Below the pieces are notes generated by a model. That model worked only from the letters and a program-made list of their open reading frames with translations, had not been told where the DNA came from and did no database searches. The position numbers and the translations under genes are program-made. From positions 1 through 4,274 of IMG/VR virus record IMGVR_UViG_2737471869_000021: a stretch of 4,274 nt of DNA. The stretch is one strand, 5' to 3'. The DNA comes from a virus. Its lineage: Duplodnaviria; Heunggongvirae; Uroviricota; Caudoviricetes. Of the stretch, positions 1 through 4,274 are shown piece after piece (within the stretch, counting starts at the first letter, position 1; each line of letters opens with the position of its first letter).

Positions 1-192
1 TCAGGAGCATTTCTGATTAACGCCACCGTTAAGAATCCACCCTTCAACAGCTTCACGAAGGTATGATTTGGGGTGGGTTCTGACTGGCTTCGGAAATCCG
101 TGTCGTTTGGTATAGTTCCAGATTGTCTGACGTGATGAAACACCGAGCTTGTTCATCACTTCTTTCTCAGGAATCAGGCTGGTATCGGTCAT
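1..192 (-). CDS. AlpA-family helix-turn-helix DNA-binding protein, putative prophage excisionase / regulator (63 aa)
   Basis: Complete ORF with ATG at 192..190 and TGA at 3..1. A GGAG Shine-Dalgarno sits 7 nt upstream (minus-strand 'ctGGAGaattaagATG'). The protein (MTDTSLIPEKEVMNKLGVSSRQTIWNYTKRHGFPKPV...EAVEGWIL) has the AlpA/Xis-like pattern of short HTH, 'FPKP' and a conserved W near the C-terminus. Its position at the distal end of the ea region matches the xis slot upstream of int in P22-like phages. Confidence 0.7.
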   Translation of the reverse strand: MTDTSLIPEKEVMNKLGVSSRQTIWNYTKRHGFPKPVRTHPKSYLREAVEGWILNGGVNQKCS

Positions 193-206
193 CTTAATTC
201 TCCAGG

Positions 207-230
207 CAAAAAGAAACCGCCATCAGGCGG
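207..230 (-). terminator. Putative intrinsic (rho-independent) terminator, minus strand
   Basis: Minus-strand RNA would form a GC-only stem CCGCC-UGAU-GGCGG (plus 217..230), extendable by A-U and G-U pairs, followed directly by UUUCUUUUUG (plus 216..207). It lies between the 55-aa ORF and the AlpA-like gene. The plus-strand orientation has no U-tract. Confidence 0.45.
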
Positions 231-390
231 CTTGGTGTTCTTTCAGTTCTTCAATTCGAATATTTGTTACGTCTGCATGCGCTATCTGCGCCCATATCAT
301 CCAGTGGTTATAGCAGTCGTTGATGTCCTCTGCTTCGATAACCCTGTCGAATGGCTCTCCATTCCATTCACCTGTGACTCGGAAGTGCAT
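223..390 (-). CDS. Hypothetical small protein (55 aa), below the ORF-track size cutoff
   Basis: Manual translation: ATG at 390..388, TGA at 225..223, giving MHFRVTGEWNGEPFDRVIEAEDINDCYNHWMIWAQIAHADVTNIRIEELKEHQAA. A GGAG Shine-Dalgarno sits 7 nt upstream ('tatGGAGatgataaATG'). The stop codon lies in the loop of the downstream terminator hairpin. The residue composition looks protein-like. I recognise no family. Confidence 0.4.
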   Translation of the reverse strand: MHFRVTGEWNGEPFDRVIEAEDINDCYNHWMIWAQIAHADVTNIRIEELKEHQAA

Positions 391-401
391 TTATCATCTC
401 C

Positions 402-428
402 ATAAAACAAAACTCGCCGTAGCGAGTT
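402..428 (-). terminator. Putative intrinsic terminator, minus strand, downstream of the DUF551 gene
   Basis: Perfect 7-bp stem AACTCGC / GCGAGTT with a 4-nt loop (plus 411..428). On the minus-strand transcript it is followed immediately by UUGUUUUAU (plus 410..402). The T-tract runs into the Shine-Dalgarno of the 55-aa ORF. Confidence 0.5.
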
Positions 429-490
429 CAGATAAAAGAAATCCCCGCGAGTGCGAGGATTGTTATTCACCTTTGACGGCAAGTTGCAGG

Positions 491-1084
491 TTAGCCACGG
501 TTAACCTCCTGAGGCGGTTCTGGTAGCGGCATCCAGTGGGTTACTCCATGCCATATACCAGTTGAGGTTTCAAACCTTGGCTCTCTGCCTTTCTGTGTCT
601 TGGCATATTCATTCCTTGTATATACGCATTGTCTAACTGCATATCCATTCCATCCAATAACTGTTTGTCTAATTTCTGGCATTCGCTCACTACAGCTTAT
701 CCAGCTATCCTTAATGCCACTATCTTGACTCTGAAGCATGGCGGCACGACAGGCGTTCCAGCCTCTCACCTCTGCAATAGCGGCAACAGCATCGACCGCG
801 TACATTTTAAGAGGGTTAGGCATTGGTTTTTCTTCAGGTACTACTGGAATGGGTGGGGCGGCGTAGACCTCAATAATTCCATTATCAATAGGCCATTCTC
901 CATCCTTGAGGTAGTCACTTGTGCCGTCAACTTGCTGTTCTGCAATGTGGAATGCACCTATTGGTTTTGCCTCAAGCGATGCCAGTGCAATTCGTGCCAG
1001 TTCCATTTGTTCGCCACGGGTAAGCCCGTTTTCAAGCGGGGATTTAATGAACAATTCGATACGTTCTTTAGTGATAGTGCTCAT
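491..1084 (-). CDS. DUF551-domain phage protein (197 aa from ATG 1084; the track's longer 224-aa form from 1165 is less likely)
   Basis: The C-terminus carries the DUF551 hallmark (...WISCSERMPE...GIWHGVTHWMPLPEPPQEVNRG). The preferred start MSTITKERIELFIK has a strong Shine-Dalgarno (minus 'AAAGGAGagtgatATG'). That start lies 1 nt after the upstream gene's TGA (1088..1086), so the two genes are coupled. The 1165 start would overlap the Ea22-like gene by about 80 nt out of frame. Confidence 0.7.
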   Translation of the reverse strand: MSTITKERIELFIKSPLENGLTRGEQMELARIALASLEAKPIGAFHIAEQQVDGTSDYLKDGEWPIDNGIIEVYAAPPIPVVPEEKPMPNPLKMYAVDAVAAIAEVRGWNACRAAMLQSQDSGIKDSWISCSERMPEIRQTVIGWNGYAVRQCVYTRNEYAKTQKGREPRFETSTGIWHGVTHWMPLPEPPQEVNRG

Positions 1085-1085
1085 A

Positions 1086-1784
1086 TCACTCTCCTTTGAT
1101 GCGAATGCCAGCGGCGCGTGGCACATTAACTTCCACGATGCGCACTGTTGGTTTGTACATCTCAATCGCTGTCAGCCAGTCAGCTCCTGCCATGCGCTTT
1201 TCCGCATCGCCATTAGTCCACTGAACCGGTACACCAATAGCCTTCATCGCGATTTCTATTTCCCCGGCAATGGCGCTTTTTCCGCAACCAGTAAAACCAG
1301 AAACAACGACAAGAACTTCGCCTTTGGCTGGTTTTATTTCCCGCGCTTCCAGTTTTGCTATGCGCTTCTCTGATGCTTCAAGTAACGCCTGCTTATCGCG
1401 TAGCGCTTCTTCCAGTTCAGCAACATGGCACTCACTATCAATAAGGTTGTTCTCTGCGGCTTCCAGCTCAACGCGCAACTTCCCTACCGTTAACGCAATC
1501 TCCTCGTTCTCCTGGTCGCGGCGTTTGATGTATTGCTGGTTTCTTTCCCGTTCATCCAGTAGCGCCTGCACTACTTCAGGGTTGAAAGCTGCGATATAAC
1601 GAGCGTTGTTCTCTGCGTTTTTCTGTCCATCAAAGCCGGTCCATTTGATAACGTCTTCACATCGTTTATCACCGGGCGTATGCACCGCATACGTACCAGT
1701 ACCAGACGAAATAAATGCGACCCATTCGCCCGGTGTTGCCTGTTTTGCTATCTCACGCAGTGCCTGATAATTAATTTCGCTCAC
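1086..1784 (-). CDS. ea22: Ead/Ea22-like family phage protein (232 aa), GTG start; central coiled coil and a C-terminal Walker-A-like motif
   Basis: An in-frame TAA lies immediately upstream of GTG 1784..1782, so this is the first possible start. It is preceded by a strong Shine-Dalgarno ('gcAAAGGAGGctgtaaGTG'). The N-terminus ([24 protein letters not shown]...AAFNPEVVQALLDE) matches my recollection of the Ead/Ea22-like N-terminal domain. The centre is a heptad-rich coiled coil (RERNQQYIKRRDQENEEIALTVGKLRVELEAAENNL...EEALRDKQALLEASEKRIAKLEA). The C-terminus contains VLVVVSGFTGCGKSAIAG. Confidence 0.7.
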   Translation of the reverse strand: MSEINYQALREIAKQATPGEWVAFISSGTGTYAVHTPGDKRCEDVIKWTGFDGQKNAENNARYIAAFNPEVVQALLDERERNQQYIKRRDQENEEIALTVGKLRVELEAAENNLIDSECHVAELEEALRDKQALLEASEKRIAKLEAREIKPAKGEVLVVVSGFTGCGKSAIAGEIEIAMKAIGVPVQWTNGDAEKRMAGADWLTAIEMYKPTVRIVEVNVPRAAGIRIKGE

Positions 1785-2266
1785 TTACAGCCTCCTTTGC
1801 GAAGCTCTGCAGCGAAATATACAGCTGCGGAAACAATAGCTGCATGTCGGCATTCACCATCAGAAAATAAAGAATCTCCCTTAAGTGCATTGACGATACT
1901 CTGATGATTTTTTGCCAGCATCTCAACCCCCTGCGCCCGGACTTCAGCCAGGAAAGCATCGGTGGCTGGGGTGTCTGATTGCAGAGACTTTGCGCGATAG
2001 TCATTCCACCCTCTTGCATACATGGGATTAACTCGCACTCCATCTTTTACGCAATATGCCTGACCTCCACGGTTGATAACCTTGATTTCGTCCATAGCGC
2101 CAGACTTCAGCCCCGCATTCTCCGCCGCCAGCGCCGCGCACTTGGCCTCCGCTTCAGCAAATTTACGCACCAGATATTCAGCGTTTGTTTCGTTAACCTT
2201 TAAATCACTTGGGATGCATTTACCTTTCAGAAAACCATCCATCTCAATTAGTGACATTAGTTTCAT
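1781..2266 (-). CDS. Hypothetical phage protein (161 aa), ea-region gene of unknown function
   Basis: ORF with ATG at 2266..2264 and a moderate Shine-Dalgarno (GGAG/GGGAAG upstream). Its TGA (1783..1781) overlaps the GTG start of the Ea22-like gene as GTGA. The protein ([16 protein letters not shown]...[35 protein letters not shown]...[19 protein letters not shown]...) has no family I can name. Confidence 0.6.
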
Positions 2267-2385
2267 TTCTTCCCACTCCGCAACATCGCATTCAGATATT
2301 TGTTTTGATTCACTGATGGAAAAGAATTTCTCTTAAGCAATTCCTCTCTCGATGGCATTGGCTTTACGCGTTGGCGAATAATCAT
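2263..2385 (-). CDS. Possible small ORF (40 aa) in the abc2-to-161-aa intergenic gap; weak
   Basis: Manual translation: ATG 2385..2383 gives [40 protein letters not shown], ending at TGA 2265..2263. That TGA overlaps the ATG of the 161-aa gene as ATGA. There is no convincing Shine-Dalgarno and several rare Arg codons. The ATGA overlap is the only real support. Confidence 0.2.
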
Positions 2386-2437
2386 TTCTGCCGGAAGAAT
2401 GCCGGGATTGTATGCAAGTCATCTCATGGTAAATTCC

Positions 2438-2734
2438 TCAGTCATTACTGATAGCGCCATAGCGTGAGCGGTAATTACGCAGGCGCGGGTCGATATATTC
2501 AGGGAATTTGTCTATTGTCGCTTTTCGCAACGGTCTCATTGCTGTTTCGTTTGTTCGGTCCTTCTCCTGTTTTAGCGCGAGTTGTATATCGCGTCGGTAC
2601 ATCCGTTCTGCTTTTGTTTCTGGTGTCAGAGCAAGAAACGCGTCGAAATTGTTTTTGATATTTTCCAGCACCTCCGCCTTGGAGCTACCGGAGCAATTGC
2701 GCGGGTCATCCGCACCATACAGAGGCGCTGGCAT
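2438..2734 (-). CDS. abc2: Probable anti-RecBCD protein Abc2-like (98 aa)
   Basis: Clean ORF with ATG 2734..2732 and a good Shine-Dalgarno ('AAGGAttccattATG'). The size is close to the roughly 97 aa I recall for P22 Abc2, and it lies downstream of erf in transcription order. The N-terminus MPAPLYGADDPR... matches what I recall of Abc2-family proteins. This is an assignment from memory and synteny, not a search. Confidence 0.5.
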   Translation of the reverse strand: MPAPLYGADDPRNCSGSSKAEVLENIKNNFDAFLALTPETKAERMYRRDIQLALKQEKDRTNETAMRPLRKATIDKFPEYIDPRLRNYRSRYGAISND

Positions 2735-2757
2735 AATGGAATCCTTATTTTGCTAAT

Positions 2758-3141
2758 TTAGAAGGGAATTGAATCGTCGTATTCAGGATGATTTTGATGA
2801 TTGCTACTTTGTTGCTGTTGGCTGTTTCCTGAAGTTGCAAATCCAATCTTTGCATTCAGTAATTCAAGAGTGATTGATTGACCATTTTGCCCCTGATAAA
2901 CATCAACCCTGATGTTTTCTCCGGTAATTTCTACAATTCCACCTTCAACAAGAACACTACGGTAGTAATCCGCTTGCGCTCCCGGCTTGGCAAATACAAC
3001 GGCGCTGTAGTTTGTCCATTCTTTCTTTTTTGTCTGGCGATCGTAATACTGAACGCCAGCACGGATGTTGAATCCGATATTTTCCCCGGCCTGAAACTCT
3101 CTTGCGGGCTTGTTTAGTCTTACAGTAATCGAATGTGCCAT
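2758..3141 (-). CDS. ssb: Phage single-stranded-DNA-binding (SSB-like) protein, minimal OB-fold with C-terminal acidic tip DDSIPF (127 aa)
   Basis: The protein ends ...SGNSQQQQSSNHQNHPEYDDSIPF, a Gln-rich linker plus a D-D-x-I-P-F tip like the C-terminus of bacterial SSB (...DDDIPF). The core (KEWTNYSAVVFAKPGAQADYYRSVLVEGGIVEITGENIRVDVYQGQNGQSITLE) resembles the SSB OB-fold segment ([32 protein letters not shown]...). Its ATG (3141..3139) overlaps the erf TAA (3143..3141) as TAATG. Confidence 0.7.
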   Translation of the reverse strand: MAHSITVRLNKPAREFQAGENIGFNIRAGVQYYDRQTKKKEWTNYSAVVFAKPGAQADYYRSVLVEGGIVEITGENIRVDVYQGQNGQSITLELLNAKIGFATSGNSQQQQSSNHQNHPEYDDSIPF

Positions 3142-3746
3142 TAAGCAGCCGCTCCTTCTAATTCATCTCGTCTGATGTTGTAAACGTCCTGCGCTTTGTG
3201 CTGCTCCGGTGTGCCTTCGAGCATCTTCCACGCTTTGGCGAACGCCTGTTTAAGCTCTTCCACGTTGTTTTTCTGCATTGCTGCGTCAGTGAATGCTTTT
3301 AGAACCTGTTCAGGTGTAGGTGATGGTTTTGATTGCTTTGCTGCTGCGTTCTGCTGATGTTTATGCTCGTCTGTATCTGCATCTTTCGCATCATCAATGC
3401 CGAATAAACCATTGAGGCAATACTTGCGTGCATAAGAGCTTGTAGCTCCCGTAACTTGTGCAGAATCCATTCCTTTCTTGCTTTCTTCCTCTCGTGCAAG
3501 AGCGGTTGCCGTATGACTGTTTTCGCCATCGGTAATAGTTGCCGTGGCTTTCACGTAATACCGATCACCAATCAACACAACTTCATCGCTGATTGATAAA
3601 AACAGGCCATTCAGTAACGGTTTAACACCTTCAAGAATATCTTCGCAGCTTCTGTATTTATATTTACCGAATGAGTTGTAATGATTTTTTGGCGCGTTCA
3701 GATTCTCCTGAATAGCTGCCAGTCTTGCGTAAAATTCTTTGCTCAT
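3141..3746 (-). CDS. erf: Erf-family single-strand annealing recombinase (201 aa from ATG 3746)
   Basis: The N-terminus MSKEFYARLAAIQENLNAPKNHYNSFGKYKYRSCEDILEGVKPLLNGLFLSISDEVVLIGDRYYVKATATITDGENSH... closely matches P22 Erf as I recall it. The track's 211-aa form begins at a TTG (3776) that adds MGHVHSENKH; the ATG at 3746 is the likelier start. Confidence 0.85.
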   Translation of the reverse strand: MSKEFYARLAAIQENLNAPKNHYNSFGKYKYRSCEDILEGVKPLLNGLFLSISDEVVLIGDRYYVKATATITDGENSHTATALAREEESKKGMDSAQVTGATSSYARKYCLNGLFGIDDAKDADTDEHKHQQNAAAKQSKPSPTPEQVLKAFTDAAMQKNNVEELKQAFAKAWKMLEGTPEQHKAQDVYNIRRDELEGAAA

Positions 3747-3756
3747 ATGTTTGTTC

Positions 3757-3927
3757 TCAGAATGGACATGGCCCAAGTAAATAACGCTGATTTAATACTT
3801 CAGTCTTTGCCGCATTTAAAAATACGCGAACACCTTCACGATCTCCCTTCTGGCGATACATTAACGCCTGCTGCGTGTACATGCGTCTCTGTAACTTGCT
3901 CTCCTTCACTGTGGTTGCAAGTGACAT
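3757..3927 (-). CDS. Small protein (56 aa) immediately upstream of erf; positional candidate for an Arf-like accessory gene
   Basis: Manual translation: ATG 3927..3925 with a very strong Shine-Dalgarno ('cgaAGGAGatattcATG'). Protein MSLATTVKESKLQRRMYTQQALMYRQKGDREGVRVFLNAAKTEVLNQRYLLGPCPF, TGA at 3759..3757, 10 nt before the erf ATG. It is below the ORF-track cutoff. It overlaps ORF 3836..4006 out of frame by 92 nt. Confidence 0.45.
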   Translation of the reverse strand: MSLATTVKESKLQRRMYTQQALMYRQKGDREGVRVFLNAAKTEVLNQRYLLGPCPF

Positions 3928-4006
3928 GAATATCTCCTTCGTTACCGATTAAATCTTTCATCTGACGAATGAATTCTTCGTCTGACCAGTTATCTGTAAA
4001 ACTCAT
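3836..4006 (-). CDS. Alternative small ORF (56 aa) coupled to kil; conflicts with ORF 3757..3927
   Basis: ATG 4006..4004 overlaps the Kil-like TGA (4005..4003) as ATGA. Protein MSFTDNWSDEEFIRQMKDLIGNEGDIHVTCNHSEGEQVTETHVHAAGVNVSPEGRS. The N-terminal half looks protein-like; the C-terminal half is low-plausibility and lies in the overlap. The Shine-Dalgarno is weak. The track's 61-aa version starts at a GTG (4021) with no Shine-Dalgarno. Confidence 0.25.
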   Translation of the reverse strand: MSFTDNWSDEEFIRQMKDLIGNEGDIHVTCNHSEGEQVTETHVHAAGVNVSPEGRS

Positions 4007-4155
4007 TTCCTGCGATACCACGGAAGGTTGATAGCTGATTTCATCGCTTTATTTGCTTCAAACCACATTTTGGAATCACCAATAAATCTGGCTATTACTG
4101 CTTTGTTTTGTGCAGCACGAAGCATCTGATGATTTATGGCTATTTCATTGCGCAT
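4003..4155 (-). CDS. kil: Kil-like host cell-division inhibitory peptide (50 aa)
   Basis: Manual translation: ATG 4155..4153 with a GGAGG Shine-Dalgarno 4 nt upstream ('ctGGAGGcattATG'). Protein MRNEIAINHQMLRAAQNKAVIARFIGDSKMWFEANKAMKSAINLPWYRRK. It lies immediately downstream of cIII and overlaps its 3' end, matching the cIII-kil order in lambda and P22. The ...IA.FIGD..M..EA... core matches my recollection of lambda Kil, but this is unverified. Confidence 0.5.
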   Translation of the reverse strand: MRNEIAINHQMLRAAQNKAVIARFIGDSKMWFEANKAMKSAINLPWYRRK

Positions 4156-4274
4156 AATGCCTCCAGTTGTTTCTTTGCTGCTCTGATTAATTGTTTAACT
4201 CGGCGTGATAATTCAGATTCGTGCGGGTAGAAAGCGGACATGACGCCGCTACCCGCGAGCTGAAAGTGCATCAT
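4140..4274 (-). CDS. cIII: CIII-like regulatory protein (FtsH/HflB inhibitor), 44 aa; start codon at the window edge
   Basis: Manual translation from the ATG at 4274..4272 (a second ATG at 4271..4269): MMHFQLAGSGVMSAFYPHESELSRRVKQLIRAAKKQLEALCAMK, ending at TAG 4142..4140. It resembles lambda CIII (MQYAIAGWPVAGCPSESLLERITRKLRDGWKRL...), sharing the xAG segment and the P-x-ES-x-L...R..+.L amphipathic helix. The Shine-Dalgarno lies outside the window. Confidence 0.65.
   Translation of the reverse strand: MMHFQLAGSGVMSAFYPHESELSRRVKQLIRAAKKQLEALCAMK

Follow-up and report, generated by a model that had tools for sequence, protein, structure and literature searches.

What does a small gene without a recognized family do when it lies between the recombination genes and the excisionase gene of a lambdoid prophage? 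The question is raised by a 4,274-nt stretch of a Caudoviricetes virus (IMG/VR record IMGVR_UViG_2737471869_000021, positions 1 to 4,274; this whole stretch is called the window below), in which the minus strand of positions 1781 to 2266 encodes a protein of 161 residues. The original prediction described it as a genuine gene of the accessory ea region without a recognized family, and as a likely seat of an undescribed function, possibly one in anti-defence. The first of these statements stands and the orphan status does not: judged by sequence, motifs, genomic position, and predicted architecture together, the protein is almost certainly a member of the EaE/Oad2 family, which is found in lambdoid and P22-like phages. 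By analogy with the one family member whose function has been reported, we see about an even chance that it counters defence by binding an OLD-type system or another one that guards RecBCD, although probably not P2 OLD, the nuclease that this relative inhibits.

Profile and pairwise comparisons agree on the family. The protein matches PHROG 614 over residues 1–158 (E = 4.9e-51) and PHROGs 492, 368, 583, and 14548 in part, and BLASTP aligns it over its full length with gp27 of phage HK446, the protein named Oad2 (40% identity, E = 2e-34), with gp28 of HK75 (46% identity, E = 7e-35), and, over residues 19–113 only, with EaE of P22 (35% identity, E = 1e-10). In an alignment that includes P22 EaE, Oad2, and HK75 gp28 (alignment A1), columns T99–Q112 and L155–G158 are invariant, and the family's coiled-coil core and LRKG(G) tail are both present in the window protein. 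A word-indexed search in which 8,000 candidates were scored returned at least 7,742 homologues at E ≤ 1e-3, one of them identical and present on 70 contigs, while an exhaustive HMMER scan of 50%-identity representatives gave 1,023 clusters at E ≤ 1e-3, of which 340 reach E ≤ 1e-10; in the assembly collection, 92 indexed blocks contain the identical protein. Of 5,426 complete E. coli genomes, 1,192 have parts of the gene and only 4 cover at least 80% of it. No deposited phage carries the full allele; relatives turn up by tblastn in 221 deposited records, which include Escherichia, Stx-converting, Salmonella, Shigella, Klebsiella, and Pectobacterium phages, and several phage relatives are annotated as "EaE protein", HK97 Gp37, or HK620 hkaH. 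No match was found in Pfam (E ≤ 0.1), NCBIfam, or PADLOC (0 families at E ≤ 0.1), which explains the earlier impression of an orphan; the family that did emerge is not a characterized one with a housekeeping role in phages.

Position points the same way. The gene order in P22 is erf-abc1-abc2-orf56(DUF2737)-eaE-...-xis, and this order, taken with the alignment to P22 EaE, places the window gene in the eaE slot. The same slot, directly after a DUF2737 gene and downstream of abc2, is occupied in P22 (orf56-eaE), HK446 (gp28-gp27), and HK75 (gp29-gp28). Two other assignments were considered and rejected. Homologues at this slot are sometimes named HNH endonucleases, but the window protein has no Pfam or NCBIfam HNH match, and one relative that carries the name (P0026) lacks any precomputed Pfam domain and looks like an ordinary EaE in the alignment; fusions of the EaE N-terminus to HNH domains, such as epsilon34 gene 31, are the probable origin of the name. 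Membership in the neighboring Ead/Ea22 family fails likewise, since the protein has no PF13935 match and no similarity to the Ead/Ea22-like protein encoded next to it. The labels "hypothetical protein" and "HNH endonuclease" at this slot should be replaced by "EaE/Oad2-family protein". A literature search on HK97 gp37/gp38, DUF2737, phrog_614, and hkaH found nothing, the matches being swamped by papers on tail-fibre gp37/38 and on intimin "eae".

The functional anchor of the family is the "OLD sentinel" preprint of 10 July 2026 (bioRxiv 10.64898/2026.07.10.737580), which reports HK446 gp27 (AFH20655.1) as Oad2, for OLD anti-defense 2. According to the preprint, a screen of an HK446 library singled out gp27, which by itself relieves P2 OLD toxicity in a host deleted for recB and does away with OLD defence, and purified Oad2 formed a stable complex with P2 OLD, an abortive-infection nuclease. 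As described there, tRNA cleavage is inhibited by Oad2 when OLD is tetrameric, whereas dimer mutants that are constitutively active escape the inhibition; Oad2 thus seems to act by blocking the activation of OLD. The same source reports gp33 of HK75 and HK446 as a new OLD trigger that is sufficient for P2 OLD toxicity, suggests that gp33 may be a new RecBCD inhibitor or manipulator, and states that the Rec locus (gp33, Erf, gp31, and Abc2) triggers OLD without gp27, whereas gp27 alone suffices to inhibit it (bioRxiv 10.64898/2026.07.10.737580). HK75 is reported to be OLD sensitive despite carrying an Oad2 homologue with 54% identity, and the preprint already notes the EaE/Oad2 family and its modularity. 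We obtained the same 54% identity between HK446_027 and HK75_28, so these are the proteins meant. In the phage database the full Oad2 allele occurs in HK446 only, the next full-length match having 57% identity. Another example of a phage-encoded direct inhibitor of an OLD-family nuclease is Oad1 of vibriophage ICP1, described as an inhibitor of the Vibrio cholerae Class 1 OLD nuclease (PMC12392090); like Oad2 in this respect, it comes from another phage group and host, and we assume no homology between it and the window protein.

How far the activity of Oad2 can be carried over depends on which parts of the two proteins correspond. Alignment A1, together with a BLAST census run segment by segment on 150 cluster representatives, divides the window protein into constant and variable parts, as follows (representative counts are those whose proteins contain the segment).

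1781..2266, minus strand: complete coding sequence of the EaE/Oad2-family protein (PHROG 614), 161 aa, from the open reading frame (ORF) and family matches.
2159..2266, minus strand: N-module, aa 1–36, constant; 89% identity to Oad2 and to HK75 gp28; 100/150 representatives.
2096..2158, minus strand: coiled-coil core, aa 37–57, constant; about 81% identity to Oad2; 100/150 representatives.
1979..2095, minus strand: M cassette, aa 58–96, variable; unrelated to the middle cassettes of Oad2 and HK75; 41/150 representatives.
1925..1978, minus strand: constant motif at the start of the C-terminal helical hairpin, aa 97–114; 93% identity to Oad2; 117/150 representatives.
1781..1924, minus strand: C cassette, variable (aa 115–156), with the LRKGG tail and stop codon; no match or a diverged one to Oad2, different from HK75; 17/150 representatives.

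Every constant segment is nearly the same in Oad2 and HK75 gp28, whose differences are confined to M and C. The window protein represents a third type of M and a third type of C: neither the M cassette (aa 76–118) nor the C cassette (aa 133–168) of Oad2 matches it, and it lacks the 25-residue extension of the central helix that Oad2 and HK75 gp28 both carry. With Oad2 it therefore has in common the full-length homology, the constant segments, the LRKGG tail, the order of helices, the slot after DUF2737, and an operon with gp33, Erf, gp31, and Abc2, while the M and C cassettes are unrelated or strongly diverged. With HK75 gp28 (ADO67655.1) it shares the constant segments, the slot, and a similar start of the C cassette (GVEM...), and it differs in the M and C cassettes and in the helix extension. 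P22 EaE (NP_059592.1), HK97 gp37, and HK620 HkaH have the same operon position, coiled-coil core, constant motif, and LRKG tail; P22 EaE differs in having an N-terminus of its own and a longer, different C cassette. A P22 deletion from eaC to eaE gave no viable particles, but it removed many genes (PMC11016777).

Across the 150 cluster representatives and 78 related IMG/VR phage ORFs the cassettes reassort freely, and all five segments of the window type occur together in 0 of the 78. The M cassette of the window protein is at least 88% identical wherever it is present, including behind Ead/Ea22 N-domains and before DUF551 domains, and the cassettes thus behave as discrete, reassorting alleles. 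In some phages the N-module is the only part in common, for instance where it is fused to an HNH endonuclease, and its protein sequence stays about 92% conserved even in genes whose remainder has been replaced. Natural hybrids extend the pattern: P0040 and P0048 join an Ead/Ea22 N-domain to residues ~39–161 of the window type, P0128 (296 aa) joins the EaE N-module, coiled coil, and M cassette to a DUF551 domain, and among 116 scanned relatives PF13935 was found in 5, DUF551 in 2, and an Acb1-like domain in 1. The motif and C cassette also occur as stand-alone proteins of 78–106 aa. The virulent Vequintavirinae phage Av-05 (121 kb, NC_025830.1) has at positions 2249–2707 a hypothetical gene whose C-terminal 67 residues are 88% identical to the window motif and C cassette, which indicates that the cassette has moved between temperate lambdoid and virulent phages.

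Two features of this mosaic lie at its joints. Positions 1979–2011 (minus strand) of the gene resemble RGWNACRAAMLQS of the DUF551 protein encoded in the same operon (721–765, minus strand; E = 0.003), the similarity being confined to a short GWN..RA..LQS joint, and P0128 switches from EaE to the DUF551 C-domain exactly at this motif. The GWN-YRA motif is thus suggested to be a recurrent recombination joint among ea-region genes. At the other end, cgcAAAGGAGGc (codons cgc-aaa-gga-ggc) encodes the family's conserved C-terminal LRKGG and also provides the Shine-Dalgarno (SD) sequence of the next gene (1791–1797, minus strand), 6 nt 5' of its GTG, so that conservation of the tail as protein and as ribosome-binding site is inseparable. 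Because one conserved segment doubles as an SD sequence and another as a crossover joint, part of the apparent constancy may be at the nucleotide level.

An AlphaFold2 (AF2) model of the window protein, built from a 116-sequence alignment, is all-helical and of medium confidence (mean predicted local distance difference test score [pLDDT] 73.7, predicted template modelling score 0.59), with helices at residues 7–13, 19–67, 81–95, 100–128, and 136–157. The C-terminal hairpin is confident (pLDDT 88–95; 90–95 in the constant motif), the long helix 19–67 with the coiled-coil core is at 78–87, and the N-module and M cassette are poorly defined. The corresponding model of Oad2, also of medium confidence (pLDDT 77.1), has helices at 6–13, 26–97, 107–117, 121–149, and 152–170, and the two proteins are accordingly predicted to share the order of a long central helix followed by a C-terminal alpha-hairpin. 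The remote-homology search and structure prediction that had been proposed for this gene thus yielded the PHROG 614 and Oad2 relationship and an all-helical model, while searches of solved structures lent no support: phmmer against PDB sequences returned only T4 fibritin (E = 1.3), and the family profile matched nothing beyond de novo designed coiled coils and further hits of a compositional kind. The fibritin match was rejected. Residues 63–79 (2030–2080, minus strand), which follow the coiled coil, resemble the foldon EAPRDGQAYVRKDGEWV (PDB 1aa0), but the match falls short of significance and the Trp of the foldon lacks conservation; the M cassette, at 88% identity or more, is too invariant for a more sensitive profile. 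The resemblance might hint at an oligomerization hairpin, in a stretch that AF2 leaves unstructured at low confidence.

That the gene is real and translated in concert with its neighbors, as the original prediction held, is borne out in detail. The ORF is intact on the minus strand at exactly 1781–2266, with 161 codons and a stop. Its ATG (2266–2264) follows an SD sequence GGAG (2279–2276) at a spacing of 9 nt and shares bases with the TGA of the upstream DUF2737 gene (ATGA at 2266–2263), while its own TGA shares bases with the GTG of the downstream Ead/Ea22-like gene (GTGA at 1784–1781), whose SD sequence AAGGAGG (1797–1791) lies within the final codons of the target. The ratio of nonsynonymous to synonymous substitution rates (dN/dS), pooled against the 78 related IMG/VR ORFs, is 0.24–0.70 in each of the five segments and fits a coding sequence. 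No promoter-like or terminator-like sites were found on the minus strand between about 500 and 3800, which places the gene inside a single long leftward operon; together with the SD sequences, the overlaps, and the substitution pattern, this indicates that the gene and its translational coupling are real.

The whole window is in fact one leftward (minus-strand) operon of a lambdoid/P22-like prophage, with the gene order Erf-SSB-Abc2-DUF2737-target-Ead-DUF551-orf55-xis, and the siting of the gene in the ea region between the recombination genes (Erf, the 127-aa SSB-like gene, and Abc2) and xis of the early-left operon was correctly recognized from the start. The neighbors are these.

4140–4274, minus strand: CIII (partial).
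4003–4155, minus strand: Kil, 98% identity to HK446.
3836–4006, minus strand: gp33 homologue of 56 aa between kil and erf, of the reported P2 OLD trigger type; 95% identity to HK446 gp33 and 98% to HK75 gp33.
~3141–3746, minus strand: Erf, 99% identity to HK446.
2758–3141, minus strand: SSB-like gene of 127 aa (= gp31), 99% identity to HK446.
2438–2734, minus strand: Abc2, anti-RecBCD (PF11043, E = 1.5e-35; PHROG 656).
2263–2427, minus strand: DUF2737 gene (P22 orf56/HK97 gp38 type), interrupted (PF10930, E = 1.1e-20); 94% identity to HK446.
1086–1784, minus strand: Ead/Ea22-like gene of 232 aa, translationally coupled to the target (PF13935, E = 1.5e-39).
491–1084, minus strand: DUF551 gene, with a homologue-based start.
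223–390, minus strand: 55-aa gene.
1–192, minus strand: AlpA-type excisionase (xis).

The target is therefore a member of the early-left (PL) operon, expressed directly after the recombination and anti-RecBCD module, and on these matches the window phage carries the reported OLD trigger gp33 together with an EaE/Oad2-family gene. Abc2 belongs to the manipulation of RecBCD, which RecBCD-guarding defences sense; the window Abc2 is a different allele, with 61% identity to the Abc2 of P22, HK446, and HK75. Several of these genes have particularities of their own. A terminator-like hairpin (3840–3825, minus strand) overlaps the final codons and stop (3836–3838) of the gp33 homologue. For erf the mechanical ORF start, TTG 3776, is too far upstream and homologues point to ATG 3746 (201 aa); for the DUF551 gene the mechanical start, TTG 1165, is likewise too far upstream and homologues point to ATG 1084 (197 aa), which overlaps the Ead/Ea22 stop. 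Codon 3 of the DUF2737 gene (2419–2421, minus strand) is a nonsense codon, GGA to TGA, relative to the near-identical copies in HK446 and in one of the surveyed loci (L007), leaving a 40-aa ORF (2263–2385) with an internal ATG at 2385, and translational coupling from upstream into the target may therefore be weaker in the window copy. The C-terminal ~80 residues of the Ead/Ea22-like protein (1086–1334, minus strand) form a small domain with a Walker-A-like GFTGCGKS, which gives weak, sub-threshold matches to APS kinase and AAA P-loop families and is present in only 5 of 80 related viral loci.

A survey of the genomic neighborhood across prophages, another step that had been proposed, shows the slot to be conserved. 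In 71 of 80 related IMG/VR loci the gene next upstream of the EaE homologue is a DUF2737 gene, and the gene order of the window recurs in L007 and two further loci (L010 and L011). The identical protein is found in E. coli prophages at different integration sites and behind three recombination modules (Erf + SSB-like + Abc2, RecT + Gp157, and Rad52-like + SSB + Abc2), always in the order DUF2737, target, Ead/Ea22-like. In 70 of the loci the upstream sequence extends for 3.5 kb or more; gp33 is present in 53 of these and Abc2 in 50. The co-occurrence with gp33 fits a pairing of trigger and antidote without proving one, because synteny alone could produce it. The region also turns over: truncated and frameshifted copies of the family gene occur in prophages, and in E. 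coli P393-F10 (NZ_CP076274.1, 950–2977) the region 3' of the EaE homologue is full of truncated and frameshifted ea genes, with a partial Ead/Ea22, several pseudogenes, and an HNH endonuclease, a locus that illustrates fast decay and turnover in the ea accessory region.

If the window protein works as Oad2 does, it would be a small all-helical protein that binds an abortive-infection sensor directly and holds it inactive, the sensor being a host or prophage OLD-type ABC-ATPase/TOPRIM nuclease or another RecBCD-guarding system. Without such an inhibitor, gp33 and Abc2, the phage's own proteins for manipulating RecBCD, would drive the cell to suicide. The mosaic pattern suggests that N-module, coiled coil, motif, and LRKGG tail make up a constant scaffold for two exchangeable specificity cassettes, and we infer that specificity resides in M, in C, or in both. 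The window protein shares with Oad2 only what HK75 gp28 also shares, so P2 OLD is probably not the target of this allele, which on its cassettes would be directed at a different variant or system; activity against P2 OLD itself is doubtful. An anti-defence role, as the original prediction had ventured, is in this sense plausible for a protein with full-length homology to an inhibitor of P2 OLD, and its function can no longer be called wholly undescribed.

Several points weigh against reading the protein as an anti-defence binder. The functional data come from one preprint and concern a protein with 40% identity. The segments common to the window protein and Oad2 are also present in HK75 gp28, which leaves HK75 sensitive to OLD, so that the shared constant segments alone give no OLD resistance and homology transfers the kind of activity, not its target; the inactivity of the HK75 homologue is itself deduced in the preprint from the sensitivity of the phage (bioRxiv 10.64898/2026.07.10.737580). 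The modules are fused elsewhere to Ead/Ea22, DUF551, HNH, and Acb1-like domains and could be generic oligomerization or scaffold modules, and the LRKGG tail coincides with the SD sequence of the next gene, so that some of the conservation may reflect the junction and not the protein. The identical protein also lies behind RecT/Gp157 modules that lack Abc2, and gp33 is missing in 17 of the 70 loci, which means that the link to a particular trigger is not strict. PADLOC and fold searches give no independent support.

Other roles would account for part of the same evidence. The one that survives best, although we consider it unlikely, is modulation of the lysis-lysogeny decision in a pro-lysogenic or pro-lytic sense, as for lambda Ea22 and other exo-xis genes. 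Lambda Ea22 and P22 EaD (PF13935) form a neighboring family of the same accessory region and, like the window protein, are modular and contain coiled coils; the window gene lies in the equivalent of the exo-xis region, where its translationally coupled neighbor is Ead/Ea22-like, Ead/Ea22 N-domains are joined to its residues ~39–161 in P0040 and P0048, PHROG 368 unites both halves, and Ea22 is reported to favour lysogeny (PMC7093339, PMC10834534). The protein itself, however, has neither a PF13935 match nor similarity to the adjacent Ead/Ea22-like protein, no solved Ea22 chain was found among the PDB sequence matches, and the only direct experiment on a family member indicates anti-defence.

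Slightly less probable again is that the protein assists the recombination and anti-RecBCD module, working on DNA ends or on RecBCD itself in company with Erf, the SSB-like protein, Abc2, or gp33. Its slot directly 3' of the recombination module is kept whatever the type of that module (Erf, RecT/Gp157, or Rad52-like), and in the predicted operon it is co-transcribed with abc2 and gp33. The pairing of the same allele with three unrelated recombinase types nevertheless speaks against its being the specific physical partner of any one of them, Pfam and NCBIfam revealed no DNA-binding or nuclease family, and, according to the preprint, the Rec locus triggers OLD in the absence of gp27 and gp27 on its own inhibits OLD.

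It is improbable that the gene is mainly a recombination junction or selfish mosaic element, with constant segments serving as homology patches or as homing-endonuclease target sites for the shuffling of ea genes and a protein of little function. The persistence of the N-module where the rest has been replaced by HNH endonucleases, the double use of the LRKGG codons, the crossover with DUF551 proteins at the GWN-YRA motif, and the truncated or frameshifted prophage copies would all suit such an element, yet dN/dS is below 1 in all five segments, thousands of homologues are intact, the cassettes are at least 88% conserved across contexts, and a family member has a clear biochemical activity. 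A chance ORF can be dismissed: only the lack of Pfam and NCBIfam matches speaks for it, and it is contradicted by the full-length family matches and homologue clusters, the coding-type substitutions, the SD sequence and overlapping start and stop codons on both sides, and the identical protein called in many assemblies.

A wider and more tentative possibility, which we would place well short of an even chance, is that the EaE family as a whole forms a combinatorial set of anti-immune binders. The M and C cassettes displayed on the constant scaffold would each be tuned to a different abortive-infection sensor, and the window allele would then inhibit a system for which no phage inhibitor is known. 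Candidate sensors would include OLD alleles, the ATPase-nucleases of Gabija, PARIS, Septu, or Lamassu, and RecBCD-guarding retrons, and the stand-alone proteins made of motif and C cassette, that of Av-05 among them, would be minimal inhibitors.

With the family and its modularity already described, what is new here is the assignment of this gene to it, the segment map that places the difference between Oad2 and the HK75 homologue in two cassettes, and an allele that has neither Oad2 cassette even though it lies beside an OLD trigger. Such an allele is not surprising to a specialist; it does offer a directly testable variant and a design for chimeras. About one in five complete E. coli genomes contains parts of the gene, and relatives are found in Salmonella, Shigella, Stx-converting, and other lambdoid phages, while activity has been demonstrated for one allele only, Oad2. 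The comparison of Oad2, the HK75 homologue, and the window protein indicates that the determinants of specificity are likely to lie in the two exchangeable cassettes, and the cassette map opens the way to chimera design and to a rational search of hundreds of natural combinations for proteins that inhibit OLD-family defences and others that guard RecBCD. For the prophages themselves, the combination of gp33 and the EaE allele that they carry may predict their fate against P2-type OLD.

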